The position numbers were made by a program, and so were the translations under genes. Of a stretch of DNA of 64,000 nucleotides, positions 8,660-27,701 are shown piece by piece (the stretch's first letter is position 1; the number at the start of each line of letters is the position of its first letter). The notes under the pieces are model-generated. The model had not been told where the DNA came from. It ran no database searches and saw only the letters and a program-made list of their open reading frames with translations. The stretch lies in the NCBI RefSeq assembly GCF_054482595.1, contig NZ_CM137008.1. The stretch is one strand, 5' to 3'.

Positions 8660-9005
8660 TCGGGTTCTTGCCAGTGAGCCAACCTGTTGTTCACTGTCCC
8701 CCATAATTTAGTGAGTGACGGCAACCGTCTGCACGGTGACGAATCGCTGGCGATCAAAAAGGGGCGATATTGAACCGTCGATTATGCTTGTTGAGTGTAC
8801 TCTCAGTAATACTGTAAAGCCGGAGCATGTCTCCGGCTTTACAGTATGGGGGAACAGCGGGAGATCGCTCAAATGGTATGCTGGTTTATTTCATGTAAAA
8901 GAATAAAATATCTGTATAAAATCATGCCACTGGCAATCTGCATCAACTCTCCGGGTAAACAGGGTTAAGATGAGCATTTCCCCGGTTTAATACAGGTATA
9001 CAAAA

Positions 9006-9992
9006 GTGGATAGAGATCAAACAAACAGCAGCCTGTTCAATGATGATCCCGTACTTCATGCAACATGGCTGTACTATCAGGAAGGCAAAAGCCAGACTGA
9101 AGTTGCAGCTATCATGGGGGTGTCCCGCGTCACGGTTGTCAAATACCTGCAAACAGCCCGGGAAAATGGACTGGTTCATATCAACCTGGATGTGAATGTC
9201 TTTGGCTCTATCGACGCTGCTTTGCAAATTCGCGATAAATTCAATCTCCTGAGAGTGATCATCGTGCCGGATGGCGAACATGCCGGAAAACGTGATGATA
9301 CAAAGCTGATGCGGACTCGCCTTTCACGTGCCGGTGGCATGTATCTGAATCAGGTGATTGAGAATGGTGATGTGCTGGGGGTTGCCTGGGGAAGAACAAT
9401 CCATCAGATGAGCAAAACCATGACGCCGAAGTCATGTAAAAATGTCACCGTTATACAGATGCTCGGTTCCATGCCATCTCAGCCAGACCTGACGATCATT
9501 GAATCCTCATCGCAAATCGCCTACAAGCTTTCAGGCCGTGTCGCTTCGCTGCACGTGCCCGCCGTGGTATCAAGCGCCAGACTGGCCATGGAGTTACAGG
9601 CAGAGCCTATTATTCGATCGAATTTTGACGTTCTGACTCGCTGTACGAAAGCCTTTTTTGTCGTGGGTAACACGCTTGATGAAAATCCCCTGATTCGGGT
9701 GGGCGTGCTGAATAAGAAGGAAATGCAGACGTATCGAGATTTAGGCGCAGTAGGTGTCATTTGTGGCCGCTTCTATGACAAGGAAGGGATGCCCGTCGTG
9801 GCTGATGTTGACCAGCGTATTCTGGGAATCAGTCTGGCTCAGTTAAGGCAGATTGAACGGAAGATCTTTCTTGCTGGTGGCGAAAGAGGCTATGACGCAA
9901 CGTTGGGTGCCTTGCTGGGAGGATATGTCACTGACCTGATTGTTGATGAAGGAACGGCAGAGTTTTTGCTGGCGTGTGAATTACCACACTAA
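9006..9992 (+). CDS. yjhU: SorC/DeoR-like sugar-binding transcriptional regulator, YjhU-like
   Basis: N-terminal HTH (SQTEVAAIMGVSRVTVVKYLQTARENGLV) followed by a SorC-type sugar-phosphate-binding domain; GTG start as given by the ORF track; position after yjhF matches K-12 yjhU. Confidence 0.7.
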   Translation: MDRDQTNSSLFNDDPVLHATWLYYQEGKSQTEVAAIMGVSRVTVVKYLQTARENGLVHINLDVNVFGSIDAALQIRDKFNLLRVIIVPDGEHAGKRDDTKLMRTRLSRAGGMYLNQVIENGDVLGVAWGRTIHQMSKTMTPKSCKNVTVIQMLGSMPSQPDLTIIESSSQIAYKLSGRVASLHVPAVVSSARLAMELQAEPIIRSNFDVLTRCTKAFFVVGNTLDENPLIRVGVLNKKEMQTYRDLGAVGVICGRFYDKEGMPVVADVDQRILGISLAQLRQIERKIFLAGGERGYDATLGALLGGYVTDLIVDEGTAEFLLACELPH

Positions 9993-10004
9993 AAGAATGA
10001 ACAA

Positions 10005-10028
10005 CTGCCCCATGTGGATATGGGGCAG
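10005..10028. terminator. Bidirectional hairpin between convergent yjhU-like and permease genes
   Basis: Perfect 9-bp inverted repeat CTGCCCCAT-gtggat-ATGGGGCAG followed by a T-rich tract, between two convergent stop codons. Confidence 0.6.
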
Positions 10029-10032
10029 GATT

Positions 10033-11037
10033 TTATTGATTAGCGGCGATAATAAGAACAATACCCACAATGTATGAAATAAACATAGTCAGCAGCAGTT
10101 TATTGGTTCCGGCTGGCGCACTGGCAAATTCTCTCCAGATGAAGACTCCCCAGATCACGGCAATCATTGTGGCACCCTGTCCCAGACCGTAGGAAATGGC
10201 ATAACCCGCCTGACCAGACGCAATCAAACTGAATGCCAGACCGACACACCAAATCATACCGCCCAGCCAGCCGCAAACATGATCCCGTAAACTCCCGGAA
10301 AAATACATTTTCCTGTAGACCGGTTCTCCTGAAATAGGCTTTTTCATGACCAGCGTGTTAAGGACAAAGTTCGACAAAAACAGCCCCACTGCAAACAGAA
10401 CAAGTGCTGAGTACGGCGTCATCAGACCGCTGGCAGGCTGGCTGAAATTGTCAGACATGGAGTCCGCCAGGAAGCGGAAAAACCATCCCATGATGATACC
10501 CGCAAGAATGGCAGTGATGAGGCCTTTGTTACGGCGAGATTTATCCGCCTCCTGCGTGACACGGCCATAGGCTATCGCGGTAAAAATAATGGCGATCACA
10601 ACGCAGGCGACACCGAGGAACAGAATGAGCGGATCGCCCTGCGGATTGCCGATATAGGTGGTGATCACACCCAGAGCCAGTGCCAGCCCCACCCCCACAG
10701 GAAAAGCTACCGCCATACCGGCAAGATTAATAGAAGCCACCAGAAGAATATTGGAAATATTGAAGATAATCCCTGCCAGTATTGCCGACATCAGACTACT
10801 GCTGCTCGCCTGCTGAATATCAGGTATAAAGCTGCGACCGGCTTCGCCCATAGAACCCAGAGTGAAGGCAAATAACAAAGAACACAGCAATAATCCAATT
10901 GAATAATCCCAATAGAATAGAGGGAACTCCCATTTTTTATTACTGACAAGTTTAGTTGTATTCGCCCATGAACCCCAGCAAATCATGGTAATAAAACACA
11001 TTATTATGGCGACAGCATACGATTCCACGATAAACAT
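10033..11037 (-). CDS. Sugar permease (DMT superfamily, RhaT/GlcU-like); candidate 5-deoxyribose/methylthioribose importer of the DHAP shunt cluster
   Basis: 334-aa membrane protein with ~10 transmembrane segments in two repeated halves; last gene of the mtnK-mtnA-ald2 operon on the minus strand. Confidence 0.65.
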   Translation of the reverse strand: MFIVESYAVAIIMCFITMICWGSWANTTKLVSNKKWEFPLFYWDYSIGLLLCSLLFAFTLGSMGEAGRSFIPDIQQASSSSLMSAILAGIIFNISNILLVASINLAGMAVAFPVGVGLALALGVITTYIGNPQGDPLILFLGVACVVIAIIFTAIAYGRVTQEADKSRRNKGLITAILAGIIMGWFFRFLADSMSDNFSQPASGLMTPYSALVLFAVGLFLSNFVLNTLVMKKPISGEPVYRKMYFSGSLRDHVCGWLGGMIWCVGLAFSLIASGQAGYAISYGLGQGATMIAVIWGVFIWREFASAPAGTNKLLLTMFISYIVGIVLIIAANQ

Positions 11038-11140
11038 AAATAACTCCTTGTGGTAGTTACAATCAATCGTTGTGGACAGAGGGCATAACAGCCATTCCTC
11101 GAATGGCTGTTATATGTTATTAATTAAAATAAAGCTGTAA

Positions 11141-11782
11141 TTACGCTTTCAAACCATACGTTTTGAATTTTTCAAGAACGATGGTCATTTCGGCTTCAGA
11201 CAGAACGGGAACATCGTGATGTAATCCGCCACATTTGATGTATAAATCAGCCAGCGTCTCAGTTTCACCCGCCAGCCACAACGTCTTTTCCAGCGTGACG
11301 TCCATGGCCAGCATACCGTGGTGCTGCATCAGTAAGGACTTACTTTCTCTGATTCCTTGAGATACACTGTCGGCCAGTTCAGGGCTGCCAAAGGTATAAT
11401 AGGGAATACAGGGAATATGATCCGTCCCCGATACCGCCACCATATAATGAATAGCCGGAATTGAATGATTATGTATTGCCACCGCCGTGGAATTCACCGC
11501 ATGCGTATGTATGACAGCATTCAATTCTGGTCTGGCTTTATAACACGCCAGATGAAATAGCCATTCACTTGATGGTATTTTACCCGCTTCAGGTATTCCC
11601 TTATCGTCTACAAAGACAATCATGTCCGGCGTCATCTTTGAATAAGCGATCCCACTCGGTGTAATCAACATGCCACCGGTATATCTGGCACTCACATTAC
11701 CTGATGTTCCTTGATTCAGACCTGACGCATTCATTTCCCGACAAATGGAAATGATATTTTCTGCTAACTTAATCCTTTCCAT
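11141..11782 (-). CDS. ald2: Class II aldolase (fuculose-1-P aldolase family); 5-deoxyribulose-1-P / 5-methylthioribulose-1-P aldolase of the DHAP shunt
   Basis: 213-aa class II aldolase/adducin-fold protein with metal-binding His motifs (HTHAVNSTAVA...QHHG); directly downstream of mtnA and mtnK homologues. Confidence 0.8.
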   Translation of the reverse strand: MERIKLAENIISICREMNASGLNQGTSGNVSARYTGGMLITPSGIAYSKMTPDMIVFVDDKGIPEAGKIPSSEWLFHLACYKARPELNAVIHTHAVNSTAVAIHNHSIPAIHYMVAVSGTDHIPCIPYYTFGSPELADSVSQGIRESKSLLMQHHGMLAMDVTLEKTLWLAGETETLADLYIKCGGLHHDVPVLSEAEMTIVLEKFKTYGLKA

Positions 11783-11812
11783 TACTGCTCCTTAACAGAA
11801 GTGATCGTCGTT

Positions 11813-12928
11813 TTAATGCAGCTCGTCCTGGAGTGCTTTACTCTTCAGGTCAGCAAACATATCCGCCAGAGCTGACTTACTGGCAGCACAGACTCCCCGT
11901 TCAGTAATGAGGCCGGTAATGTATCGGGCAGGCGTGACGTCGAAAGCGTAGTTCCCACAACGGGTTCCTTCAGGGGCGGTATTGACCCAGCTCAATTCTC
12001 CCTGAGTATTTATCCCATAGACATGGGACTGCTCTTTTCCGTCACGTTGCTCAATCGGAATGGTTTTTCCGTCCTCGATAGTCCAGTCAATAGTGGGAGA
12101 AGGTAACGCGACGTAGAAGGGAACATGGTTATCATGGGCCGCCAGCGCCTTAAGATAGGTACCAATTTTATTACAGACATCCCCTCTGGCCGTGGTTCGA
12201 TCGGTCCCCACTATACAGAGATCAACGTCACCGTGTTGCATCAGGTGGCCACCCGCATTGTCGGCAATCAGGGTGTGAGGAATACCGTGTGAACCCAGTT
12301 CAAATGCCGTGAGTCCACCCTGATTACGTGGCCGCGTTTCATCCACCCAGACGTGAACAGGGATTCCGTTTTCATGCGCTTTATAGATGGGAGAAAGCGC
12401 GGTTCCCCAGTCTACAGTCGCCAGCCAGCCTGCGTTACAATGTGTCAGGATATTGACCACACTCCCGGCCGATTTTTTCTGGGCTATTTCGCGGATGACT
12501 TCTGCACCATGTAATCCAATTTGTTCACACAACGCGACATCTTCCTCGGCAATTTCTGCCGCCAGCGCCCAGGCCACATCCTTGCGCTCTGATACACAGA
12601 GATCCTTCAGTGTGGCTATCATCCTGTCGAGAGCCCATTTGAGGTTAATTGCAGTTGGTCGGGTTTTGATAAGAAGGTCATAGTAACGCTGCAGACCTAC
12701 GTCACTGGCATTGTGGTTCATTCCCAGTGCGATACCATATGCCGCAACGACACCAATAAGCGGGGCGCCACGAACCCACATCTCCTGAATAGCCGCAGCG
12801 GCCATTTCCGCAGAGGTAAGCGCCACCACTTCAAACTTAAAAGGCAGCTTAGTCTGATCGATGATCTCTACCGCTTTTCCATCCCCGGAAACCCAGACCG
12901 TTCGGTAGTGTTTACCTTTAATATTCAT
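11813..12928 (-). CDS. mtnA: 5-methylthioribose-1-phosphate (5-deoxyribose-1-P) isomerase
   Basis: 371-aa eIF-2B alpha/beta/delta-family protein ([39 protein letters not shown]) typical of MtnA. Confidence 0.85.
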
Positions 12929-12937
12929 AATGACCTC

Positions 12938-14197
12938 TTACTTAACCTTCGCAGACTGGATGACGGAGTCCATATTTTTAAACTGGCGGGCATTGACAAT
13001 AAGATCGCGCGCCATGGTCAATGCACGTCGTTCACATTCTGCGCGAAGCTCTGTATTTTCAATCTGTTTCAGCTCGGCAACGCCAGCAAAACCAATGATC
13101 CGGCGATTCATTTCCATGCCGGCATTCACCAGGGAATCTTCAAGCAGCGTGGCAAAAAACTGATCCTGTGCGTCCTCAAGAGCGGCCCTGTTCTGTTGAT
13201 ACATTTCTGTCGGCCACGCGTCACCCTGTGTTTTGTTGTCCCAGAGCTGGCGGAACTCCCGGGTGAAAACTGACCAGGTGTGGACAATCTGCTGAAGTAG
13301 CCATTCCTGATAGTCAGCGCGACGTTGCTCATTTGCATCCCACCCAGGGCGTGAGAAGAACGCCAGCAGGAGGTTGCCAATATAGTTGCCGATATCAAAC
13401 GCCATTGGTCCCATGAAACCGAACTCCGGATCAATCACTTTGGTATCCGTGTCGGTCACCATGATTGAGCCTGAATGAAGGTCACCATGTAACAATGCCT
13501 GCGCTTCTGTCATAAATTTGTACTTATAACGCATGGCAACCTGGAGCATCTCTACATCAGCCCAGGCCTTATGGACGGCATCGTCCAGCTCAGGAGAAGT
13601 CCAGTTATTCCGTTCCGCGTTGTAATAGGGCTCTGTGAAGATCAGATCTTCCGTAATTTTGCACAGCTCATGATTTAACGCGAACTCAGCAGTAAGCGCT
13701 TTTTTCTGTTCTGCTGACATGCCAATGTCAGACGTATTAAAGAGAGTCTGTGCTAAAAATCTGCCGATATCTTCAGCTAGCTTAGGGAATTTTTTACCGT
13801 TAATCAGTCCCTTACGCAGAATTACGTGAGGCGTCAAATACTCCATGGCAAACAGTGCCATTTCCGGGTCATAAAAATAGACCTGGGGAATCAGTGTGTG
13901 ACCCGCGTACTTGGCTTCCTGACATAAGACGTTGTACTCAAAGCCCGCACGGCTCAGAGATAAAGGCCATCCTTCGCCCCCTGCACGAAGCCAGGGCAGA
14001 GCTTGTTTTACAATGATGGTTTTATGTGTCCCCTTAACGATAAACACCATGTTCAGGTTTCCGTCCCCCACTTCTGAAACTTTCCACTCTTCTGGTAACC
14101 CTCCCGGTTCGCATGAAGGGGTCAGTCTGGACGAGAGATAACCAGGCAGCGTGTCACATGTCAGCGGCTTGTAACCTGATGGAATTGAATCCGTCAT
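12938..14197 (-). CDS. mtnK: 5-methylthioribose / 5-deoxyribose kinase
   Basis: 419-aa protein-kinase-like fold with MtnK hallmarks (EVGDGNLNMVF, HGDLHSGSIMV, KVIDPEFGFMGP). Confidence 0.85.
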   Translation of the reverse strand: MTDSIPSGYKPLTCDTLPGYLSSRLTPSCEPGGLPEEWKVSEVGDGNLNMVFIVKGTHKTIIVKQALPWLRAGGEGWPLSLSRAGFEYNVLCQEAKYAGHTLIPQVYFYDPEMALFAMEYLTPHVILRKGLINGKKFPKLAEDIGRFLAQTLFNTSDIGMSAEQKKALTAEFALNHELCKITEDLIFTEPYYNAERNNWTSPELDDAVHKAWADVEMLQVAMRYKYKFMTEAQALLHGDLHSGSIMVTDTDTKVIDPEFGFMGPMAFDIGNYIGNLLLAFFSRPGWDANEQRRADYQEWLLQQIVHTWSVFTREFRQLWDNKTQGDAWPTEMYQQNRAALEDAQDQFFATLLEDSLVNAGMEMNRRIIGFAGVAELKQIENTELRAECERRALTMARDLIVNARQFKNMDSVIQSAKVK

Positions 14198-14711
14198 AAC
14201 AGTTCTCCTTGTCTACACAGAATGATAACTGACTTATCATATGGCAACTATACTTTATCATGTGTAAAGTAATTTGTGATGCATGTAGATTTTTTGAACT
14301 GGAGAAAATTAAAAATAATGTTGTATGGAGTCATGATCTTTACAGGAATTAGTAGGGTGCATTCCTGTTATTTATATAAAATTCATTGTATTACATAAAA
14401 ATGACGGTGCTGCGCGGGGAATTGTCTCGGGCAATCTTAGACGAAAGGAAGTATTGAAGTGACAGAATAATCTACATTTTTTATACATGTGTATTTTTCT
14501 GTTGTCTTTTGTTTTTAGCGTATGGTGTTTTTATGCCGATGTCTAATAGACAGATAGATTCGAGGGCCAACAGCCCCATTATCATGATGGAGCAACAGAG
14601 GTGAGTCTAACGTTTCCGTACTTCTTATCGATCGGCACTAACAATCCTTTGTGATAACGGTATTCCCACACAGAGAAACCCACGTACCTGAATAAAAAAA
14701 AGATTACTGGT

Positions 14712-15130
14712 GTGGAAATGGGATTAACAGATTATGCCATCAAATCGGATGGTAATGAGGTCAATAATCCTCGTCATCTCATTAACGTCAACTGTAATCT
14801 GCGACGCAAATTAGCCAGCATGATGAATAACAAACACAATCTGGCAAGAGCGTTAGGTGATGCTGATTGGCACGGCTTTATCAACAAACTGGAGTACAAG
14901 GCAGCCGAAAAAGGCGTTCATCTGGTAAAAATCGACCAGTAGTTTGTCTGTTCGAAAAGCTGCTATTGTTGTGGTTACAAAATGTCGCTTCAAAAACGGA
15001 TCTGGCGATGCCCTGAATGCGGTGTTGAACATGACCGGGATATAAATGCGGCAATCAACATAAAACTTAAAGACATACAGGAATTAAAGGCGGCGGGCCC
15101 CGTCGTCTCTGTCTATGGAGGAGCTGCGTA
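14712..15130 (+). pseudogene. tnpB: IS200/IS605-family TnpB C-terminal remnant with an in-frame TAG stop
   Basis: Single reading frame gives ...AEKGVHLVKIDQ*FVCSKSCYCCGYKMSLQKRIWRCPECGVEHDRDINAAINIKL...; the zinc-finger and RuvC-III region of TnpB is present, the N-terminal ~2/3 is absent, and there is an in-frame TAG at 14940-14942. Confidence 0.7.
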
Positions 15131-15395
15131 AACCCGTCGTACAGACGGTTGCAGCCTGAAAAGTGGGAAGGCCTTGCCCGATTGGGCGGGGAGTAGTCAC
15201 CCTTGGAGTCATTTTTATCCGGTGTATTAATATGCTCCTAATAGTTAATCTGGTTATAATATTTTTTTTTTGATTATGATCACGAAAATATCTCGGTTTT
15301 TATTTGCAAAACTTGAAACGTGAATCCAAAAAAGATAAATATTTGTCCGCAGTGACTTCTTTTCTGTTGAAAAGTTCAATCTAAAGGGCAAAAAA

Positions 15396-16508
15396 ATGAA
15401 AAAAATTACAGTGGCACTTTCTGTGGTTGCGGCATCTGTTCTGATGGCAATGTCTGCACAAGCGGCAGAAATCTATAACAAAGACGGTAACAAACTGGAT
15501 CTGTACGGCAAAGTTAATGCAGAGCATTACTTCTCTTCTTCAGCTAGTGATGACGGGGATAAAACTTATGCTCGTATGGGTTTCAAAGGTGAAACTCAGA
15601 TTAATGACCAGTTAACCGGTTTTGGTCAGTGGGAGTACGAATTTAAAGGTAACCGTACTGAAACTGAAGGTTCTGATAAAGATAAAACTCGTCTTGCGTT
15701 TGCAGGGCTTCGCTTTGGCGATTATGGTTCGCTCGACTATGGTCGCAACTACGGTGTAGCTTATGATGTTGGCGCTTGGACTGACGTGCTGCCGGAGTTT
15801 GGTGGAGATACCTGGACTCAGACTGATGTATTTATGACCCAGCGTGCTACTGGCGTAGCGACCTATCGTAACAATGATTTCTTCGGCTTGGTTGATGGTC
15901 TGAACTTTGCTTTGCAGTATCAAGGTAAAAATGATAGTGCTGCAAAAGTGAATAACTGGAAAGGCCGTGACGAAGTTGAATCTAATGGTGATGGCTTTGG
16001 TCTGTCAGCTACTTACGATTATGAGGGATTTGGCGTTGCTGCAACCTATGCAAAATCTGACCGTACTGATGGGCAGGTATCCTATGCTAAAGACAGCCCT
16101 CTGAATGCCTCTGGTAAAACTGCTGAAGTATGGGCTACGGGCCTGAAATATGATGCAAACAACATTTACCTGGCTGCAACTTATTCTGAAACTCAGAATA
16201 TGACAGTCTTCGGTGATGACCATATCGCAAACAAAGCGAAAAACTTTGAAGCTGTTGCTCAATACCAGTTTGATTTCGGCTTGCGTCCGTCCATCGCTTA
16301 CCTACACTCTCGCGGTGAAAATATTGGTGCGTTCGGTAACCAGGATCTAGTTGAATACATCGACGTAGGTGCGACTTATTACTTCAACAAAAATATGTCC
16401 GCTTTCGTTGACTACAAGATCAACCTGATTGATGAAAGTGAATTTACCAAAGCATCTGAGGTTGCAACCGACAACATCGTTGCTGTTGGTATGACCTACC
16501 AATTCTAA
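15396..16508 (+). CDS. Outer-membrane general porin, OmpC/OmpF/PhoE family paralogue
   Basis: Signal peptide followed by [17 protein letters not shown], conserved porin motifs ([25 protein letters not shown]) and C-terminal ...VAVGMTYQF; a Rho-independent terminator follows. Confidence 0.9.
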
Positions 16509-16663
16509 TTTTGGTAGGTAAGAATATGCGGGAAGGGAGTGATGTCACTGCCCGCATATAGGTGGCACCCTCATGCCACCTTTGAAGAGGCAATTTTATT
16601 GCCTCTTCTCAATTTAACTTCATGTTATTTATTACCCTTTTATTGATTTGAAACTCTATTGTT

Positions 16664-16690
16664 GGGGCGCTTTGTTGCGCCCATTTTTTT
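16664..16690 (+). terminator. Rho-independent terminator downstream of the porin gene
   Basis: GGGGCGC-tttgtt-GCGCCCC stem-loop followed by ATTTTTTT; a second perfect hairpin GAAGAGGCAA-tttta-TTGCCTCTTC lies at 16584-16608. Confidence 0.7.
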
Positions 16691-16742
16691 ACACCAATTA
16701 GGTAAAGTTATTTTTAAGTAATCGAGCAACTTGATCCTACCC

Positions 16743-17975
16743 ACGTAATGTGGACACGGCCCTAAGCGAGATTATGGTTTTCAAATTGTTCCGGGCTGAG
16801 ACCGCCACAGGCACTGTGACGACGCCAGCGATTGTAATCACACTCGATATAATTAAACACCGTTGCCCGCATTATTTCCCGGCTGCTAAAGCGTTCCCCG
16901 TGGATACATTCCACCTTCAGCGAATGAAAGAAGCTTTCCACACAGGCATTGTCATAACAGTAGCCTTTCGCACTCATACTGCCACGCAGGTTGTGTCGCT
17001 TCAGCAGCGCCTGATAATCCCCTGAACAGTATTGACCACCACGGTCCGTATGAACAATGACGCTTTCCGGGCGTCTTCTCCGCCACAACGCCATTTGCAG
17101 TGCATCACAGGCCAGTTGTGCTGTCATTCGCGGTGACATCGACCAGCCAATGACGGCGCGTGACCACAGGTCGATGACTACTGCGAGATACAACCAGCCC
17201 TCATCGGTACGCAAGTACGTGATGTCACCCGCCCACTTCTGGTTCGGGCCACTGGCGCTGAAGTCCTGCTCCAGCAGATTCTCCAATACGGGCAGACCAT
17301 GTGCACGGTAGCTGACCGGGCTGAACTTCCGGCTGGCTTTCGCCCGCAGCCCCTGACGACGCAGGCTGGCGGCAATGGTTTTAATATTGAACTCCGGCAG
17401 TTCGTCAGCAAGGCGGGGATCACCGTATCGCTGCTTTGCCTCAAAGAATGCCTTATGGACAGCGGCATCGCAGGTGAGCCGAAACTGTTGGCGCAGGCTC
17501 ATCTGGTGACGACGCCTGAGCCAGACATACCAGCCGCTGCGGGCAACCCGAAGTACACGACACATCGCTTTGATGCTGAACTCTGCCCGATGATTTTCGA
17601 TGAAGACATACTTCATTTCAGGCGCTTCGCGAAGTATGTCGCGGCCTTTTGGAGGATGGCCAGTTCCTCAGCCTGCTCCGCCAGTTGTCGTTTAAGGCGG
17701 ACATTTTCAGCGGCCAGTTCGCTTTCGCGCTCTGACGAACTCATTTGTTGCTGCTGTTTACTGCGCCAGGCATAAAGCTGAGATTCATACAGGCTGAGTT
17801 CACGGGCTGCGGCGGCCACACCGATGCGTTCAGCGAGTTTCAGGGCTTCGTTACGAAATTCAGGCGTATGTTGTTTACGGGGTTTCTTGCTGATTGATAC
17901 TGGTTTTGTCATGAGTCACCTCTGGTTGAGAGTTTACTCACTTAGTCCTGTGTCCACTATTGGTGGGTAAGATCA
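16743..17975 (-). mobile_element. IS3-family insertion sequence (IS3-like), ~1.23 kb, orfA/orfB with overlapping frames
   Basis: Terminal inverted repeats TGATCCTACCCACGTAATGTGGACAC (left) and GTGGACACAGGACTAAGTGAGTAAACT...TGATC (right, reverse strand); OrfA (17613-17912) is IS3 InsE-like and OrfB (16762-17616) has the DDE integrase core; the two ORFs overlap as expected for a -1 frameshift. Confidence 0.9.
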
Positions 17976-18244
17976 CGGCGGGGTTAGGTGCGTGCGCTGA
18001 ACAAAATGACGAAGGTAGGAATGCCAGAAAGCGTGCGTATTGCCTGACGGTAGCAACCAGCTGAAGGGATGCTTATCCCCAAACCTGATTTATTCAACAA
18101 AGCCGCTATAGCCTTACCAGAACAATCACCACCTCCCCTGGAGGTGGTCAAGAATACAGCTCTGGCGAGCCGCATACCTTTAATTACCTGCTCTGATTAG
18201 ATAAATCAGATGCAGGTACATAAGTATGCCAGCATTATATGCAA

Positions 18245-19435
18245 TTAACGTTTCCGTCCTGGAAATACAAATAGTGCAATAACGGGAGATATTACCATCA
18301 GAACAAAAACATAGGTAAATCCAAGTGTAAATCCGCCTGTTAGATCGACCGACCAGCCAATTAACTGACTGTTTATCGTTGCCAAAATAAATGTACAAAC
18401 CCAGAAGGTGGACATTGAATAAGTAACAGTTTGGGTATTCGCATTTTTTTGTTCTTCTTTTGGAATGGAGAAGATGAATGCAAACCAGGTGGCAAAAATA
18501 GAACCCGTCAAAAACGAACAAACCAATATAACGATATCATTAGTGGCAAATAACATTGCAAAGGTTGTAATAGCCATAAAGATACTGGAAATAAATAGCC
18601 ATGATTTATAATTATACCCACGGTTTTTAAAGTACGGCCCCATCAATGCACCAAGTAAAATTCCCACCTGATTGACTGTGCCACTCAAGTGAGCACAGGA
18701 GTCAGGGGGAAGATTAGCATATTTTGCATAGTACAGAGGCAGAAATGTGAACATAAAAATCATCATGATCATTGCCCCAGCATACTGAATAATCATTCCC
18801 CAGACAATACGATTAAACAATACATCCTTTAATACAGATATTCGCTGTTCATAACTTATAGATATATGGCTATTCTGTTGTTGCTCTTCATCCGTGAAAC
18901 ATATTATCCAGACAACCCCCAATATTAACGTAATTATTCCATAGATAGCTAACAGATTACGCCACCCGTTGAACAGCAGTGATAAATAACCTGCCAATGT
19001 CAATGCAATAATTGTACCGATAATATTTGAAGTGCAATTTATACTATTTAATGTTGACGCCATTTTGTTATCGAAAAAGCGAGCAACCGTGGGCACCAGT
19101 GATACAAGGCAAATAGCCCCCCCCAGCCCACCAAGAAAACGAATAATCAATAACAAAGTAAAGTTATTAATAAATGGAATGAGCAAGGAGCTCCCAATCA
19201 TTATACATCCAAGAAAATAGGATTTTCGGGTGCCGAGCCGGGAAACAAAGACTGCAGTACAAACAGCTCCCACAATTTTAGCCCATAAAATTACATTTGA
19301 CATCAATGCAGCATGTGATACATCAACATTAAAATCACTCATAATTTGTGGCATTACGGCCCCTGTCGTAGCCCAGGCGGCACCAAATACCATATAAACG
19401 GTGTAAAGAATGAATTCAATGACCCATTTTTTCAT
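18245..19435 (-). CDS. MFS transporter
   Basis: 396-aa protein with ~12 predicted transmembrane helices; low-GC codon usage; start overlaps the stop of the upstream peptidase gene by 4 nt. Confidence 0.7.
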   Translation of the reverse strand: MKKWVIEFILYTVYMVFGAAWATTGAVMPQIMSDFNVDVSHAALMSNVILWAKIVGAVCTAVFVSRLGTRKSYFLGCIMIGSSLLIPFINNFTLLLIIRFLGGLGGAICLVSLVPTVARFFDNKMASTLNSINCTSNIIGTIIALTLAGYLSLLFNGWRNLLAIYGIITLILGVVWIICFTDEEQQQNSHISISYEQRISVLKDVLFNRIVWGMIIQYAGAMIMMIFMFTFLPLYYAKYANLPPDSCAHLSGTVNQVGILLGALMGPYFKNRGYNYKSWLFISSIFMAITTFAMLFATNDIVILVCSFLTGSIFATWFAFIFSIPKEEQKNANTQTVTYSMSTFWVCTFILATINSQLIGWSVDLTGGFTLGFTYVFVLMVISPVIALFVFPGRKR

Positions 19436-20685
19436 TTTTGTACCTCAGGGACACTTAGCTCAACCATTTCCAGCAGCATTTCACTGGCAAGACGCAGGGA
19501 TTCCACAGGCAAAAACTCTCTGGTTGAGTGAAAATTGTGCGCCCCTGTAAATATATTAATAGTAGGCAGCCCTTTTGGGGTGATGACGCTACCATCATAA
19601 CCACCGCGCATAATCAGTGGTTTTGGTGTAATGCCAAGGTTACGCATTGCCTTTCTAACGTTATCTAAGATTGCAGGTGTTTTATCAAGCGCTGGTTTGA
19701 CATTTTCATATATATCGGTTAACACTAATGTTATTCTTTCACTCTTCCAGCGCTGATTAATACTCTTAACAATGTTCTCGAGTACGGCTTTACGTTGTTT
19801 ATATCCTGTTAACTCAAAGTCCCGAATAGCAATATCAAGCGTGGCGCTGGCTGTATCACCATGGAGATTATGGACCCAATAATATCCTTCCCGTTTTTCA
19901 GTATGCTCAGGCCTTTCTTTTTCAGGTAATGCGGCGATAATTTCCGTTGCTATACACAACGCATTAACAAGCTTACCTTTAGCACTCATTGGATGTGCTG
20001 TAACACCACGAACTGTAATTCGTGCACTACCTGCATACCAGTTTTCAACAACATATTCTCCAATCTCACAACAGTCGAGACAGATACCAAAATCAGAATT
20101 CAGTTCACCAACATCAAGCGCTTTTGCCCCTCTGATACCGGTCTCCTCATCAGGCAAAAGAACAAGACGAATATCACCATGAGAAAAGGAGGGTGTATTA
20201 ATCATATATTTGAGAGCTTCAACACCTGCTGCAATGGCAGCTTTGTCGTCAGCCCCCAGCAAGCTGGTGCCATCAGTTACAATAATATCCTGACCGATAT
20301 AGTTGAGTAGTTCTGGATTATCCTGTGGGGATAGTTTTTCCACACTCCCTGCAAACGGTATAGCACCTCCGTTATACTTTTTCACTCGGAAAGCATGTGT
20401 ATCTGTACTGTGGTCCGGAGCTGTATCAAGGTGTGCAAAGAATACGATAGAAGGTGCATCAGGAATATTAGCGGGTAAATGAATTGTGGCAATAGCATTT
20501 TCTTTTATGCTTGTTTGTACCTCTGGAACATCAGAAAATTGATTTACAACATATTCTGCCAGTTTATATTGATTTTTACAGCTTGGAAGCTCCTTGCTAC
20601 CATCAACCGATGTCGTATTTATTTTTGTGTAATATAAAAAAGTCTCAATTATTTTCTCTAAGTCAATGCGTTTTTTCATGATCAT
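19432..20685 (-). CDS. M20-family metallopeptidase, peptidase T (tripeptidase)-like
   Basis: 417-aa protein with M20 metal-binding and catalytic motifs (FFAHLDTAPD, LGADDKAAIAAGVEAL, LLPDEETG); low GC. Confidence 0.75.
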   Translation of the reverse strand: MIMKKRIDLEKIIETFLYYTKINTTSVDGSKELPSCKNQYKLAEYVVNQFSDVPEVQTSIKENAIATIHLPANIPDAPSIVFFAHLDTAPDHSTDTHAFRVKKYNGGAIPFAGSVEKLSPQDNPELLNYIGQDIIVTDGTSLLGADDKAAIAAGVEALKYMINTPSFSHGDIRLVLLPDEETGIRGAKALDVGELNSDFGICLDCCEIGEYVVENWYAGSARITVRGVTAHPMSAKGKLVNALCIATEIIAALPEKERPEHTEKREGYYWVHNLHGDTASATLDIAIRDFELTGYKQRKAVLENIVKSINQRWKSERITLVLTDIYENVKPALDKTPAILDNVRKAMRNLGITPKPLIMRGGYDGSVITPKGLPTINIFTGAHNFHSTREFLPVESLRLASEMLLEMVELSVPEVQK

Positions 20686-20889
20686 ATACCTAATTGTTTA
20701 CTATCAATATCCTGACTATCTATATTTAGATAATATCCTGCAAAAATTAGTGAGTATAGAAAAGGTCGTCAGTTCCTGACTGGTAAATGTCCCTTCGAGA
20801 TTTATTAGAGTCATAATTTGCCTCATCCCAATACAAAAAACAATACGAAAGTATGAAAAAGTGTAGTGATCAACAAAATATTGCCACGT

Positions 20890-20967
20890 TTGTTTCGGTG
20901 TTATTGGAGAGGTTTTTGGTGTTTTGTCCTTACGAGCATCACGCAGTTGTTTGCCCCATCTTGTCAT
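20890..20967 (-). pseudogene. IS911-like OrfA fragment
   Basis: Translation [26 protein letters not shown] matches the central region of IS911-type OrfA; the rest of the ORF is not transposase-like. Confidence 0.45.
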
Positions 20968-21120
20968 CGTGGAAAGGCGACATCAATAGCTTGGTGTAAC
21001 TCTGGTCAACAACCAGTTGCACGGAGTTGCATATGAATTCAGGAGCTTTTCACTGGTGCACCTATATTGGCATATCTGAACCGCCCCGGAAATCCTGGAG
21101 ACTAAACTCTCTGAGAAAGA

Positions 21121-21189
21121 GGCAAACAGGATGACTAAAAAAACACGTTTTTCCCCCGAAGTCCGTCAACGGGCAGTTCAATGCTTTGT
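21121..21189 (+). pseudogene. IS629/IS3411-like OrfA N-terminal fragment
   Basis: MTKKTRFSPEVRQRAVQCFVE followed by a stop; resembles the IS629-type OrfA N-terminus MTKNTRFSPEVRQRAV. Confidence 0.45.
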
Positions 21190-21602
21190 CGAATAAACAT
21201 TTACCTGAACGATTAACTGCAACGGCTATCCTTACCGACAATCAACGTCAATAAAAATCTGTACTGACTCGTCAGCACTGGGTTCGATCAGTAGGAACAT
21301 GAATTCAAAGGCCTCCTTGCTGAATCTCAAGACTCCTCCGATTCCAAAGATAAACCCCGTCTTAAGTTCGCTGGCCTGAAATTCGGTGACTATTGTCTAT
21401 ATCGGGATCACCACGGTTGTGTGATTAATCATCGTCGATCATAAAGCGTCTATGGATGTACTGCGGCGTTCCTGCTACTGGTGATCACCCTGTGGTTGTG
21501 CAATTCCAAACGGATGAAGCGAGAGTAACAGACATCACGCCGCAATCGGGGGCGGCGTGTAGACGTGGTTAATTACTATCAAATATATTAATCAGGCCGA
21601 TT

Positions 21603-23054
21603 CTATTTGCTTTCATTTATGGTTTCCATCATGAGCTGTTGCTGCTTTTCTTTGGACAGTCGAGCGATACCAAAGCCTGTGAACCCCCACAGCGTCGCAA
21701 AGAAAATGCCACTCCAGCAGAGAATAGCCCACGGAAGATAGCTTAATGTAGCAACGCCAAGTGTACCTGCCATGTAGGCACCCGCGGCAGTCCAGGGCAG
21801 AATTGGTTCAAATATGGTGGCAGAGTCTTCTACAGTCCTTGCCAGATTTTTTGGATGTAGGCCGCGCTCAATATAAGCACTTCGTAGCATTTCAATCGGA
21901 ATCAGGATTGATATCTGACCATTACAGGTCACGCTAATCATTGTTAAACCACAGGCAATAGTCGCAAGAATCATGGTTCCTGTGGAATGAACTAATTTGA
22001 GCAGATTATGGACGATGACTTCTAAAGCGCCGCTCAAGGCTAATGTTCCTGCAAATGAAAGGGCGCAGAAACAAATAAGCAACGTACTCATCATCGAGTT
22101 CATGCCACCGCGGTTTAACAAATTACCTAATAGCGGATTAACATCTTTATCGGTAAGCATTGAAACGTTAAATCCGTCTACTGCACTTTTAACAATGTCG
22201 TGTAGTGCGAACCCCTGAATAACGCTGGCGTTGATCATGGCTACCAGTGCCGAAACAAGCATAATTGGAATGGTTGGTTTCTTGGTAATCGAACCGTACA
22301 GGACAATGGCAATGGGTAGCAATAACAATAAATTAAAATGATAAATTCCTTTTAATCCTTCAGTGATTAGCTGAATTTTTTCGGGAATGGTTGAGCCGCC
22401 GAGCTCGCCATTCATCCCATAGAGCGTCATAACAAAGGCTGACAGTATCAATGAAGGAAGGGTTGTATAAAGTAAATGAGCGATGTGTTCATAGAGATCT
22501 ATCTGGGCTGCCATTGCGGCTAAGTTAGTATCACCAGAAAGGGGAGACAGTTTGTCCCCGAAGTAAGCCCCTGCCACAATAGCGCCTGCAGTTGCTGCCA
22601 GATTAGCCTCCATTCCGATAGCCACACCCATAAACGCAACACCGACGGTGCCTGCGGATCCCCAGGATGTCCCTGTGCATACAGAAACGACGGCAGTAAC
22701 GAGCAGGGCCGTCACATAGATCATGGAAGGATTTATCAGAATAAGGCCGTAATAAATCATCAGCGGAATAGTACCGCCTATCATCCATGTCCCAATCAGG
22801 AGGCCCACGCTGATCAAAATTAGCAGAGCAGGCATTGTTTTAGCGATTTTCTGCGATATTGATTCAAGGATTGCATTGTAGCCATACCCCAACCGCTTAA
22901 CTAACAGTGCAGCAATGACGGTTGAAAGAACCATTAATGGCTCAGGTGGCAGATCGAATGCCGCATAACCAAATCCCAGCAATAGTATCATCGCTAGTAT
23001 TGGTAATAATGATTCCACCAGAGTTGGGGATCTTGGAGTATTGTTATTATTCAT
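21603..23054 (-). CDS. NhaC-family Na+/H+ antiporter-type transporter (possible amino-acid or organic-acid carrier)
   Basis: ~480-aa polytopic membrane protein with NhaC-like topology; likely start MNNNNTPRSP at 23054, immediately after the stop of the upstream C-S lyase; low GC. Confidence 0.7.
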   Translation of the reverse strand: MNNNNTPRSPTLVESLLPILAMILLLGFGYAAFDLPPEPLMVLSTVIAALLVKRLGYGYNAILESISQKIAKTMPALLILISVGLLIGTWMIGGTIPLMIYYGLILINPSMIYVTALLVTAVVSVCTGTSWGSAGTVGVAFMGVAIGMEANLAATAGAIVAGAYFGDKLSPLSGDTNLAAMAAQIDLYEHIAHLLYTTLPSLILSAFVMTLYGMNGELGGSTIPEKIQLITEGLKGIYHFNLLLLLPIAIVLYGSITKKPTIPIMLVSALVAMINASVIQGFALHDIVKSAVDGFNVSMLTDKDVNPLLGNLLNRGGMNSMMSTLLICFCALSFAGTLALSGALEVIVHNLLKLVHSTGTMILATIACGLTMISVTCNGQISILIPIEMLRSAYIERGLHPKNLARTVEDSATIFEPILPWTAAGAYMAGTLGVATLSYLPWAILCWSGIFFATLWGFTGFGIARLSKEKQQQLMMETINESK

Positions 23055-24225
23055 GAAGGGAAACTCCTGTAGTGAAGGGGATGCTCTGATAAATCCGTTC
23101 AAATGCTTGTGTAAGATTGCTTCTCGGCGTGGCTATGTTCACACGGAAAAAACCAAGTCCTTCATCGCCAAAATCTGATCCCCAGCTCATCTCAACACCT
23201 GCGAGCGAGACAAACCAATGGCGTAGTTGCTCTTCGCTGATGTTCATTGCCCGGTAGTCGATCCACAACATGTAAGTTCCGCCACCAGAGGCGACAAACC
23301 AGTCTGGAAAATGAGCTTGGCAGAATGATTGAACCCAGCTCCTGTTTTCGACCAAATAATCTTTTAATGCTGCTAACCAAGAATCGCCATGGCGGTAAGC
23401 ACAGAGAAATGCAGGAACAGAGAAATAACCAGGATTATGGATACCTGCTGCAATAAGAGCTAATTTAAACTGTTCACGATATTTATCGTTAGCAATAACA
23501 ATATTTGCGATTTCAAGTCCGGCCATATTAAAAGTTTTTGCTGGAGATGTACAAATAAACGAGTTTTGTGCAACGTATGAGCTTATAGAAGAAATTGTTT
23601 GATGTTGTTTTTGGGTGAAGTTGAAGTCTGCATGAACATCATCAGAAATAATAAAAACATTATATTTTTCTGCTAATGAAGCTATTTTCCTTAGATTGTC
23701 TTCTGACCAGATTGTTCCTGTTGGATTATGCGGCGATATTAGAATGAAACAACAAGCCATTTTAAACTTATCTTCGAGATCCGCAAAGTCTATTTCATAG
23801 TGGTGGTCACGATAAAGTAACGCACTTTCCAGCAATACTCGATGGTTGACTTCAACTGCATGACTAATAGGATGATAGGCTGGTGCCAGGCTGACAATAG
23901 CATCTCCCGGTTGGGTAAAGTTCTGGATAAATAATGAGACGGCCTGTACTACCCGTGGGCAAAAAACAATGTGTTCAGGGTTGACCTTCCACGAGTAATG
24001 GCGTTGATACCACTGTGCTGCCACTTGCTGCCAGTCATCACTTAATAATGTATAACCGTAGATACCTTTCTGATTTGCGACAGATAATTCAGAAACTATA
24101 AAATCAGCTACAGGAATATCCATATCAGCTACAGACAGGGGAATGATGTCACGCCCCTTGTTATTATATTTAGCGCTATAGGTTCCGTCGCGTGAAATAA
24201 CTTTATCAAAATTATAAACTTTCAT
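23047..24225 (-). CDS. PLP-dependent aminotransferase class I/II enzyme, PatB/MalY-type cysteine-S-conjugate / cystathionine beta-lyase
   Basis: Likely start MKVYNFDKVISRDGTYSAKYN; typical MalY/PatB features (SVADMDIP, aminotransferase fold); first gene of a low-GC minus-strand cluster. Confidence 0.75.
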   Translation of the reverse strand: MKVYNFDKVISRDGTYSAKYNNKGRDIIPLSVADMDIPVADFIVSELSVANQKGIYGYTLLSDDWQQVAAQWYQRHYSWKVNPEHIVFCPRVVQAVSLFIQNFTQPGDAIVSLAPAYHPISHAVEVNHRVLLESALLYRDHHYEIDFADLEDKFKMACCFILISPHNPTGTIWSEDNLRKIASLAEKYNVFIISDDVHADFNFTQKQHQTISSISSYVAQNSFICTSPAKTFNMAGLEIANIVIANDKYREQFKLALIAAGIHNPGYFSVPAFLCAYRHGDSWLAALKDYLVENRSWVQSFCQAHFPDWFVASGGGTYMLWIDYRAMNISEEQLRHWFVSLAGVEMSWGSDFGDEGLGFFRVNIATPRSNLTQAFERIYQSIPFTTGVSLHE

Positions 24226-24657
24226 ATTTGTTACTCGCCCGGTTTTATCGTTAGGGTAATGTAATATTTCGAGGGAGGAAGTGTTATTCTGTATTTTGTT
24301 TTCGTTATTATGAAAATTTGCATATGTGATGTTTATCACAAAGATGTTAACTATCTGTCAATAAAAAGACTCCAGCAAATGTAAACGTTTTACATCGCTT
24401 AAGCCTATGGAATTTACATAAAAAAAGGGCGTGCCGAGTCTTTCGACCCAATCATTATCTCGGTAACTCCATTCACAAGAGCAGGAAATAACCTCTTCAA
24501 CAAATAACAGACTGATGCCTGCGAGCGCGCTCCCCAGGTTTCCGGGCTGAAAGTACCGCCGCACTCGTTTAACGCGGAACAGTCTGTGTTGGCGGTTTAA
24601 TGGTGGATGTTGCTGTAGACCACAACTGATGAGGCAACGGAGTTTACCGTGATGATT

Positions 24658-25839
24658 CCTATTTATCATTTTCTGGTCAGTGCCGCGATTCTGGTATTCA
24701 TGGTGATTTTCTGTCAGACACGCCATCGCGACCACCGTAACTGGCTGGCTCTGCTGCTATTCGTATTATGATCTGTAAACAGCTGGCCATTGCGGATGGT
24801 TAAAGGAACAATTGTGGGGACAACTGACACATTGCGTAAAATGCAGCGTTATGAACAACTGAGTCAGCACGGGGCTGACAGCTGGAAAATCCTGCTGGGA
24901 GCACCGTTATATGACACGATTGTTATTGTCACTAGTGAGAGTGTGCGCAGGAATTATATGACAGCGTATGGCTATCCCGTATCAACCACACCGTGGCTGA
25001 ATATGGCACCCGGTTTATTTATTGACGGTTATAACTCGACAGCCTCCAGTACTGTGCCTTCCCTGAGCCGGACACTGATTTATGACTATGAGCAGCCCCC
25101 TGATTCCGACAACAACGTGGTGGCGCTGGCAGCAAAAGCAGGATACAGCACATAGTGGATATCCAATCAGGGAAAACTGGGGGAGTATGACACACGCATC
25201 TCTGTTATTGCTTCTGATGCGGAGCATACCGCTTTCCTCAAGAAAGGCAGCTTCGCTTCCCGTAAAACAGATGACAAACTGTTGTTACAGGAAACAGAAC
25301 GTGCGCTGGCGGATACATCCTCTCCGAAGATAATTTTCCTGCACATGATGGGTTCTCATCCAAATCCGTGTGACAGCCTTAACTCCTGGCCGAATAATTA
25401 CCTGGAGCAGTATCCCCGAAAAATTGCCTGTTACCTCGCCAGCATCAGTAAACTGGATAACTTTCTTGGCCAGCTTGATGGTATCCTTCGCCGGTACTCA
25501 CGTCATTTCGCCATGCTTTACTTTTCTGGCCTTGGGCTGTCGGTCAGCGACAGTGCTAATCCTGTTCATCATGATGGTCATGTGCAGGGGGGCTACAGCG
25601 TTCCCCTGATTATTACCGCCAGTGACATCACGTCTCATCAGTCCGTCAGCAGGAAAATCAATGCCCGTAATTTCGCAGGCATTTTTCAGTGGCTGACCGG
25701 TATTCGTACCGAAAATATAACGCCATTCAATCCGCTGACAGACGAAGATAATGAACCCGTTATGGTTTTTAACGGAGAGAAAAATGTGCCGGCAGACAGT
25801 CTGAAACCGCAGCCACTTATTCTTCCGGACCACAGGTAA
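24658..25839 (+). pseudogene. Phosphoethanolamine transferase (sulfatase-family, EptA/YhbX-like) pseudogene, truncated and frameshifted
   Basis: Two adjacent ORFs in different frames (24790-25155 and 25282-25839) carry sulfatase-domain motifs (YGYPVSTTPWLN; IIFLHMMGSHPNP); a short transmembrane peptide is encoded just upstream; the N-terminal membrane domain is missing. Confidence 0.55.
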
Positions 25840-26162
25840 TCATATATGGCAAACTGTAATACAGTCTCTTGTACTGAAAAGGATTCTGTATAGAATAGAA
25901 CCTGTATTCATATCAGCACAAGGGACCACCAAATCCCGGCAACATTCCTTACGTCAGTTATCCCGCATCACCCTGTGGGTGCGGGATTTTTTATGATGTT
26001 TCTTTTTATTGAATATATATAAATAACGAATAACTGCGGATTCTGATAATCCACCTGCAGGGAGCAATCCGGTAAACATTTAATACATCAGTTAATATCG
26101 TTTTGCCTTTTTAACAAAGAAAATATTCATGGAGTAAGTTCCCGGGCATTTGCCCGGGATGA

Positions 26163-27428
26163 TTACTGTTTTAATGGATTATTAATCTTTGCATATTCAA
26201 ATGGACTGATAAATTTTTCTCTGTTTGCATCCAGAAAATCGGCCCACCATTGTAGCATCAAGCGGCGTTCTTCCAGATGCTCTGCTTTATGAATGTAAGC
26301 AGCACGTACACCGTTACGTTCCTGATGGCTCATCTGACGTTCCACAGCATCGCGGGACCACAAACCTGATTCAATCAATGCACTGCACGCCATCGCCCGG
26401 AATCCATGGCCACAGACTTCCTGGGTTGTGTCATACCCCATCACCCTCAGGGCTTTATTTACAGTATTTTCACTGATTGGTTTACGCGGGTCATGTGCAC
26501 CCGTAAATATCAGACCATTTTCACCTGCCCATGTCTGAAGTTCTGTCAGTATGGCTACAGCCTGTTTGCTGAGTGGCACAAGATGTGGTGTTCGCATCTT
26601 GGAGCCCCGGTGTGAGAATTTTACGCCTGGCAGAGGTTCGCGTTCGGCTGGAATAGTCCACTTGGCATTGTCAATATCAATTTCAGACCAGCGGGCATAT
26701 CTGAGTTCACTGGAACGAATAAAAACCAGTAAATTCAGCATAACTGCCAGTCGGGTGACAGGCTGGCCTTTATAACCGTCAATACGCGACAGAAGTTCAG
26801 GCAAGCGTGAAAGATCCAGAGCAGGGCGATGCTGGCGTTTTACCGTGGTCAATGCACCAGCCATATCCAGAGCCGGGTTATATCTGATGATGCCTGACTG
26901 TACGGCATAACGCATTACAGCAGATATTCTTTGCTGCAGACGACTGGCGATTTCATAAATTTGTTTTGCTTCTGCAGCACGAACAGGGATAAGCAGATCC
27001 GGGGTATTGAGTGTTGTGATATCCCGGTTGCCGATAAAGGGGAAAACGTGTGTCTCGAGGCTTTTGAGTACTTTATCGCTGTGTGATTGTGCCCATTGTT
27101 TATTACTGGCATGCCAGCGTCGTGCAATATGTTCAAAAGAGAGCTGTAAATCAGGGACAACTTTTTTAACTCTTTTCTGTTCGCAAGGGTCAATCCCTTC
27201 TGAAATCAGTTTTCGGGCCTCATCCCGTTTTGTACGAGCTTCGGAGAGAGAAACTTCTGGATACACACCAAGTGCCAGAGTCTTCTCCTTACCCAGAATA
27301 CGATAACGGAGACGCCAGTAACGGGAACCATTAGGATGAACCAGCAGGAACATGCCGGCCCCGTCAGTGAGTTTATAAGCCTTGTCAGTGGGCTTTGCAG
27401 CCCGGATTTTTGCGTCAGTCAGTGCCAT
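26163..27428 (-). CDS. int: Tyrosine site-specific integrase, P4-type (island integrase)
   Basis: 421-aa protein with the P4-integrase N-terminus MALTDAKIRAAKPTDKAYKLTDGAGMFLLVHPNGSRYWRLRY and the C-terminal catalytic domain; lies ~200 bp from the 3' end of tRNA-Phe. Confidence 0.95.
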   Translation of the reverse strand: MALTDAKIRAAKPTDKAYKLTDGAGMFLLVHPNGSRYWRLRYRILGKEKTLALGVYPEVSLSEARTKRDEARKLISEGIDPCEQKRVKKVVPDLQLSFEHIARRWHASNKQWAQSHSDKVLKSLETHVFPFIGNRDITTLNTPDLLIPVRAAEAKQIYEIASRLQQRISAVMRYAVQSGIIRYNPALDMAGALTTVKRQHRPALDLSRLPELLSRIDGYKGQPVTRLAVMLNLLVFIRSSELRYARWSEIDIDNAKWTIPAEREPLPGVKFSHRGSKMRTPHLVPLSKQAVAILTELQTWAGENGLIFTGAHDPRKPISENTVNKALRVMGYDTTQEVCGHGFRAMACSALIESGLWSRDAVERQMSHQERNGVRAAYIHKAEHLEERRLMLQWWADFLDANREKFISPFEYAKINNPLKQ

Positions 27429-27625
27429 AGTTCAGCCTTCTGAATGCGTTAAAGAGGGTACAAATTCTGTCGAACTGGGGTATACCCGCAATTATACCCA
27501 CACAATGAGGTTGATGTGGGGGGAATCTGGTTGAGTTCGGTAGAATTGATTTGGAGGCAGAACGCTTAAATTGTGGCGTTCTGAAACGAAAAACGGACCT
27601 CCGTGGAGGTCCGTTGATATGAATT

Positions 27626-27701
27626 TGGTGCCCGGACTCGGAATCGAACCAAGGACACGGGGATTTTCAATCCCCTGCTCTACCGACTGAGCTATCCGGG
27701 C
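27626..27701 (-). tRNA. pheV: tRNA-Phe (GAA)
   Basis: Reverse complement reads GCCCGGATAGCTCAGTCGGTAGAGCAGGGGATTGAAAATCCCCGTGTCCTTGGTTCGATTCCGAGTCCGGGCACCA, which is E. coli tRNA-Phe with CCA end. Confidence 0.97.

Follow-up and report, generated by a model that had tools for sequence, protein, structure and literature searches.

The 917-nt interval at positions 20686-21602, between the pepT start and the nhaC stop codon (both genes on the minus strand), is very probably a non-functional junction, an "IS graveyard" within a tRNA-Phe-associated E. coli island that records serial mobile-element events. Positions refer throughout to the window, i.e., the whole 64,000-nt stretch of DNA that was analyzed. 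The interval is a mosaic of gene remnants, with three IS pieces and the tail of a psiE gene, and it joins two independently acquired two-gene cassettes, pepT-MFS on the left and patB-nhaC on the right. Overall, this is an ordinary feature of mosaic islands.

E. coli chromosomes matched the window, with O157:H16 Santai reaching 99.6% identity over window positions 8600-27648. The genomic island around the interval includes a P4-type integrase gene (26163-27428) and, at its edge, a tRNA-Phe gene (27626-27701) that is adjoined by an ornithine decarboxylase gene, a neighborhood which we take, from the K-12 map, to be the pheV arrangement. Beyond 27648, a position in the 3′ end of the tRNA-Phe gene, the Santai sequence departs from that of the window and runs into CP4-type prophage-like genes (toxin-antitoxin, antirestriction, RadC); in that strain, a second island appears to lie in tandem at the same tRNA-Phe attachment site. 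Self-comparison of the 64-kb window revealed no second copy of any piece of the interval, and a search of the plasmid collection with the interval returned matches solely for its IS911-like and IS629-like pieces. Two stretches, 20736-20888 and 21291-21392 (~250 bp together), were without assignable homologue in the sequences searched. RefSeq annotation marks the PsiE pseudogene and none of the three IS remnants.

The leftmost of these remnants, on the minus strand at 20889-21069, derives from an IS911-like element (IS3 family) and was recognized by blastn, by tblastn, and in an alignment to an annotated IS911-family copy. All 181 nt aligned at 77.9% identity (E = 2e-37, blastn against a 28-Gb collection), and tblastn matched residues 36–64 of the IS911 OrfA protein to 20976-20890 (79% over 29 aa, E = 7.7e-13) and residues 9–24 to a second segment at 21040-20993 (69% over 16 aa). 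The remnant contains ~20 nt of leader, a degenerate start codon, and orfA codons 1–64, and differs from IS911 by deletions of 16 nt and 11 nt and by a frameshift. Neither a terminal inverted repeat nor orfB was present in the alignment to the IS911-family copy: the ~70 nt that carry the IS911 left repeat are missing, and homology stops at orfA codon 64. Since the piece has no repeats and its homology ends at codon 64, we consider it a remnant and not an element. At 78% identity, its source was a relative of IS911, not IS911 itself, and that relative turned up intact neither in the 5426 E. coli genomes nor in the plasmid collection.

The second remnant lies on the plus strand at 21077-21179, where blastn and tblastn revealed the left end of an IS629/IS1203-like element (IS3 family). 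Copies that carry the annotation IS629 or IS1203 match it at 93–96% identity (E about 1e-39), and tblastn recovered the start of an IS629-like orfA, MTKKTRFSPEVRQRAV. The piece comprises the terminal repeat, a 54-nt leader, and orfA codons 1–16, with the orfA ATG at 21131, and the homology is broken internally at 21179/21180, after codon 16. Most IS629 matches in unrelated chromosomal and plasmid contexts begin at one base, window position 21076/21077, and this same start base in many unrelated replicons identifies 21077 as a genuine IS terminus. The ~976 records covering 21070-21200 are inflated by ordinary IS629 copies and give no measure of how often the junction occurs. With homology ending at 21179, the rest of the orfA/orfB transposase and the right end are absent from the piece, so that it cannot move by itself. 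Both of these IS pieces had been noted in the preliminary description as very short OrfA fragments, IS911-like at 20890-20967 and IS629-like at 21121-21189, on opposite strands. Both are real, with the orientations given and with similarities far beyond chance, and both are longer than was claimed, the second starting to the left of the position given for it. The two had also been assigned to different IS families, which is wrong, as RefSeq labels both as IS3-like (IS3 family).

The third IS remnant, on the minus strand at 21180-21290, corresponds to codons 1–40 of an IS110-family, ISEc20-like transposase. Its DNA matched ISEc20 at 74.6% identity over 114 alignment columns (blastn; E = 2e-16 locally and 5e-6 against the 28-Gb collection), and two collinear tblastn segments, 59% and 88% identical to the ISEc20 transposase, gave the peptides LIEPSADESVQIFIDVD and AVAVNRSGKCLFDKAL. 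Relative to ISEc20, the remnant carries a 1-nt insertion and an 8-nt deletion. The 37-aa stitched peptide, a very short piece, had no match among Pfam and NCBIfam profiles, and a related truncated peptide (P0205) had a weak match to PF01548. We regard this putative IS110-family transposase N-terminus as a moderately supported assignment. An intact element was sought with a stitched 43-aa peptide, in which three residues (THH) and the frameshift repair had been taken from ISEc20, inflating the E-values, and the search returned two other truncated N-termini alone. The remnant probably stems from a different member of the family than ISEc20.

The IS110-like homology ends precisely at the IS629 breakpoint, 21179/21180. 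Since both homologies end at this position, the two elements were fused at a breakpoint internal to both, and the joint reads as one of deletion or illegitimate recombination, not of transposition. On the other side of the IS110-like remnant, the 102 bp at 21291-21392 resembled neither the leader of ISEc20 nor any other sequence searched. As it lies between the start codon of the transposase and the breakpoint in psiE, we infer that this stretch represents the IS110-like element's non-coding 5′ end; insertion of that element would have truncated psiE.

The rest of the mosaic is a 3′ pseudogene of psiE on the plus strand (21393-21528), which retains codons ~88–136 and the stop codon and was identified through blastn, alignment, NCBIfam, and RefSeq, the latter placing a PsiE pseudogene at 21395-21528. 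Its DNA is 79–80% identical to the chromosomal psiE (E = 1e-33), a gene present in 5424 of the 5426 E. coli genomes. The PsiE equivalog profile NF002767 matched with an E-value of 6.8e-16 over positions 90–136 of 136; the score of 58 bits lies below the full-length cut-off of 222 because the fragment covers about one third of the protein. The copy is disabled by the loss of its first ~87 codons, an in-frame stop, and a 10-nt deletion. A GC-rich hairpin with an 8-bp stem, including 7 G-C pairs, follows at 21536-21559, 44 nt downstream of the nhaC stop codon. It was detected by a terminator scan of the minus strand and by conservation with E. coli strain KL53, in which alignment showed the hairpin to be kept in the gap that separates psiE from xylE, its convergent neighbor. 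For the surrounding 53 nt of the plus strand (21528-21580), the folding energy is -17.8 kcal/mol, with a z-score of -2.5. The U-tract that follows the hairpin on the nhaC strand is weak and interrupted (AUGUCUGUUACUCU; AUGUCUGUU). We predict that this hairpin is a probable bidirectional terminator, inherited from psiE and ending the patB-nhaC transcript.

Next, we consider how the interval is distributed across E. coli. The block to the right of the IS629 terminus was found in 336 of the 5426 genomes (those with at least 80% of 21190-21602), in which it is kept at 99% identity, and the whole interval was found in nine. All 16 partial matches listed start at 21076/21077. For strains ET565, NMBU_W05E18, 19SZHZ663Rt, and ES4, the match to the window is 99% identical rightwards from 21076-21079, with nothing shared to the left. 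There, the left flank encodes McrBC with a phosphorothioate-dependent nuclease in ET565 (locus L002, 3029-7865), a NotI-family restriction-modification system next to another transposase remnant in NMBU_W05E18 (locus L040, 1199-3065), DUF499/DUF3780 anti-phage-associated genes in 19SZHZ663Rt (locus L041, 1-3763), and a restriction enzyme with yet another transposase remnant in ES4. The DNA to the left thus consists mostly of defense genes in the other sampled genomes and of metabolic cargo, i.e., pepT-MFS, in the window. By these comparisons, the IS629 terminus at 21077 marks where a conserved block on the integrase side gives way to a region of exchangeable cargo.

We tentatively raise the possibility that the 103-nt IS629 terminus itself is a recurrent recombination anchor for cargo swaps in tRNA-Phe and tRNA-Leu islands, although we are doubtful of it. 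Such swaps could proceed by homologous recombination with incoming IS629-bearing DNA, or through a transposase acting in trans, and an anchor of this type, if real, would account for the break at the same base in every sampled genome. The block that runs from the IS629 remnant through the IS110 remnant, the psiE tail, nhaC, and patB to a phosphoethanolamine transferase pseudogene (21077-26512) is associated with tRNA-Phe in the window and with tRNA-Leu in ET565 (L002, 8001-14744). The near-identity to ET565 (96.8%) ends at window position 26512, inside the integrase gene. Together, these observations suggest exchange of a cargo block between islands at two tRNA sites, the crossover having taken place inside the integrase gene.

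To the left of the interval, the pepT-MFS cassette occupies 18245-20679 on the minus strand, with the MFS gene at 18245-19435 and pepT at 19432-20679 (alternative start at 20685). Both genes are annotated by RefSeq; in NCBIfam, pepT matched the peptidase T model NF009920 with 455 bits (cut-off 293), and the MFS gene had subfamily-level matches. The same two genes occur on ~62-kb E. coli plasmids at 86.5% DNA identity, flanked by IS91 and another transposase remnant, and they adjoin each other as well in E. albertii, on a Buttiauxella chromosome, and on a contig that includes conjugation genes. No nhaC-type gene was called near pepT-MFS in the plasmids, E. albertii, the conjugation-gene contig, or Buttiauxella. 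In the window, an intact ISEc16 (IS3 family, with programmed frameshift; 16762-17912) bounds the cassette on its far side. The RefSeq annotation of the matching strain places an additional ompC-like porin gene and a fragment of a TnpB/InsQ pseudogene just left of ISEc16, at 14641-16508.

IS3-family sequences of like orientation lie on both sides of the cassette, as would be expected if pepT-MFS had arrived as a composite transposon with ISEc16 on one side and the IS911-like sequence on the other, and the plasmid cassette likewise lies between transposase genes or remnants. We nevertheless consider such an arrival very unlikely: ISEc16 and the IS911-like remnant share no detectable DNA similarity, the IS911-like copy is without both terminal repeats, and a general repeat scan of 16000-22000 showed no direct target repeats. 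In addition, a unit running from ISEc16 to an IS911-like sequence is absent from the 5426 genomes except at this site.

The AT-rich 5′ region of pepT (20686-20888, minus strand, 32% GC) separates this cassette from the IS911-like remnant. In an alignment with the plasmid locus (L007), the ~50 nt directly upstream of the pepT ATG (about 20686-20735) were alone common to both, and the upstream DNA of pepT relatives showed no similarity to the window past ~40–50 nt. Farther upstream, 20736-20888 had no match in E. coli beyond the nine carriers of the interval and none in the plasmid collection. A small hairpin with a T-run at 20768-20780, ~85 nt upstream of pepT, is no stabler than shuffled sequence (z = -0.34). 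On the pepT strand ahead of the pepT start, a consensus scan detected no promoter-like site bar one that overlaps the start. An FNR-like half-site near the pepT start, spotted by eye, is too near the ATG for interpretation.

Rfam 15 gave no match at E ≤ 1 on either strand of 19000-23500, none of the small ORFs of the interval reached a Pfam family threshold, and all of its ORFs of at least 25 aa are chimeric or antisense read-outs of the remnants. When Pfam and NCBIfam profiles were applied to the small ORFs and to the stitched remnant peptides, PsiE alone was recovered, the IS peptides being too short. Hence, nothing in the interval would be expected, from its sequence, to yield a functional protein or RNA. 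The preliminary description had seen here a recombination scar of IS debris with no convincing ORF, and this stands: the longer ORFs are remnant read-outs without a Pfam-level match, no bona fide small protein or RNA came to light in Rfam or Pfam, and the left half of the interval occurs in only 9 of 5426 E. coli genomes. The interval is not otherwise empty, since it also holds the IS110-family remnant (21180-21290) and the psiE tail (21393-21528) with its hairpin.

Part of the interval might still have a function, with the IS629 promoter or leader driving a chimeric non-coding RNA or a 21-codon orfA′ peptide (21131-21196), or with the pepT-proximal 150 bp serving as a regulatory leader. The IS629 leader and start codon are indeed intact and 93–96% conserved, but recent common descent of the whole block accounts for conservation of this kind, including the 99% identity across 336 genomes. 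A chimeric RNA is countered by the lack of any Rfam match, and the orfA′ peptide scored 15 bits against a cut-off of 24 for the transposase HTH model. The position of the 20768-20780 hairpin and T-run, ~85 nt upstream of pepT, would suit a regulatory leader, but its z-score of -0.34 does not, and the pepT-proximal stretch is not kept in the plasmid cassette. Overall, we judge a partly functional interval to be highly improbable, and a non-functional junction remains the preferred reading.

To the right of the interval, NCBIfam models identified the patB(malY)-nhaC cassette (21603-24225, minus strand), with nhaC at 21603-23054 and the C-S lyase gene at 23047-24225; NhaC matched TIGR00931 with 593 bits (cut-off 370) and the PatB C-S lyase matched TIGR04350 with 369 bits (cut-off 340). 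In all 18 of the Gram-positive loci, nhaC is directly preceded by a PatB/MalY-type C-S lyase gene. The Gram-positive NhaC relatives, from Lachnoanaerobaculum, Anaerococcus, Oceanobacillus, Mobiluncus, and others, are 50–58% identical, and no PepT or MFS relative was present near the 18 patB-nhaC loci in the flanks fetched (up to 7 kb, contig permitting). The closest NhaC homologues (86–88%) come from Serratia fonticola, Pluralibacter gergoviae, and a metagenome contig, where the same pair sits in three different neighborhoods. In all three, the nhaC stop codon is where the resemblance to the window ends, and neither psiE nor pepT/MFS was found beside nhaC in the flanks fetched. Neither a scan of genome contigs with NhaC, which returned only the 50–58% Gram-positive relatives, nor these closer homologues revealed the genome in which psiE and nhaC first became neighbors. 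Based on these comparisons, the patB-nhaC pair looks like a mobile uptake-plus-cleavage unit. It is carried by oral and skin Firmicutes and Actinobacteria and by Serratia and Pluralibacter, and in S. fonticola it lies between xylR and xylA. A complete IS3-family element interrupts nhaC in both ET565 (L002, 8513-11292) and 19SZHZ663Rt (L041, 4512-7210), so that the cassette is evidently decaying in some lineages.

A transcript reading through from nhaC to pepT would have to pass the hairpin, then 917 nt of remnants with two weaker hairpin-plus-T-run sites (21261-21278 and 20768-20780). The IS110-family remnant and the psiE tail with its terminator, which the first reading of the sequence had missed, argue against co-transcription of nhaC and pepT, and we consider such co-transcription unlikely; the weak U-tract on the nhaC strand makes some read-through into pepT possible. 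Probably, patB-nhaC ends at the inherited hairpin and pepT-MFS is transcribed alone.

This bears on the claim that the interval splits a low-GC module, i.e., that patB, nhaC, pepT, and the MFS gene once formed a single operon-like unit, later interrupted by IS elements, with co-transcription in the past or at present. The idea is scarcely credible and appears largely refuted by comparative data: all four genes do lie on the minus strand with below-average GC (38–45%), and a tripeptidase with a transporter next to a C-S lyase with a transporter would make a shared catabolism of peptides and amino-acid conjugates plausible, but in no relative of either pair does the other lie close by, the tail and terminator of psiE abutting the nhaC stop point to an unrelated convergent gene having formerly been there, the pepT-side junction occurs in only 9 of the 336 genomes with the nhaC-side block, and the plasmid pepT-MFS, 86.5% identical, comes without nhaC. 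Instead of one module that was split, patB-nhaC and pepT-MFS are each conserved alone, and the left flank differs in four other E. coli.

Given a junction between two separate cassettes, the remnants would fit the following succession of events. A psiE gene would have been transcribed towards the end of a patB-nhaC operon that had been acquired horizontally, the two sharing the terminator hairpin; the psiE tail and terminator that abut nhaC indicate that an unrelated gene formerly converged on the end of patB-nhaC, which used the terminator of that gene or shared it. An IS110-family element may then have replaced the first ~87 codons of psiE. Subsequently, an internal deletion could have fused an IS629-like element to the IS110-like transposase gene, after which 103 nt of the former, with its terminal repeat, and 40 codons of the latter remained. 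The remaining IS629 terminus at 21077 would then have come to delimit the variable cargo region in the island. Finally, in the lineage of the window, an IS911-like element, cut upstream of orfA and at codon 64, and then pepT-MFS would have joined this edge. No genome was found with an intact psiE paralogue, IS110-like element, or IS911-like element at the site.

For annotation, the spacer needs no new gene or RNA call, and the gain consists of three IS remnants added to what RefSeq marks. nhaC and pepT are best handled as separate transcription units and as separate acquisitions. The breakpoint at the IS629 terminus provides a handy landmark for the variable cargo region of tRNA-anchored islands.

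Each remnant can be compared with a known counterpart. The E. coli RefSeq copies of IS911 share with the IS911-like remnant a collinear leader and orfA N-terminal coding region at ~78% DNA identity, but the remnant keeps only ~180 nt, without terminal repeats and without orfB. The IS629/IS1203 elements have their left terminal repeat, leader, and first 16 orfA codons in common with the 21077-21179 piece, which, unlike them, ends after 103 nt, without transposase and without right end. For ISEc20 of the IS110 family, the first ~40 codons of a DEDD-type transposase are recognizable in 21180-21290 at 75% DNA identity, whereas the remnant is frameshifted, has lost the rest of the gene, and is preceded by an unrelated upstream leader. 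psiE, which encodes a phosphate-starvation-inducible inner-membrane protein, is collinear with the remnant over its last ~47 codons, stop, and GC hairpin; the remnant represents a second, diverged copy that is convergent to nhaC, whereas the chromosomal psiE is convergent to xylE.

At the scale of the island, tRNA-anchored islands such as the one at leuX (hotspot 37) have been described as hypervariable hotspots of defense and cargo genes (PMC12707154). The island in the window resembles the leuX hotspot 37 (PMC12707154) in its conserved integrase-proximal block, in the swappable restriction-modification, McrBC, and anti-phage cargo, and in the IS remnants found at the joins. It differs from that hotspot in being located at tRNA-Phe and in that the cargo at this junction is metabolic, not defensive.
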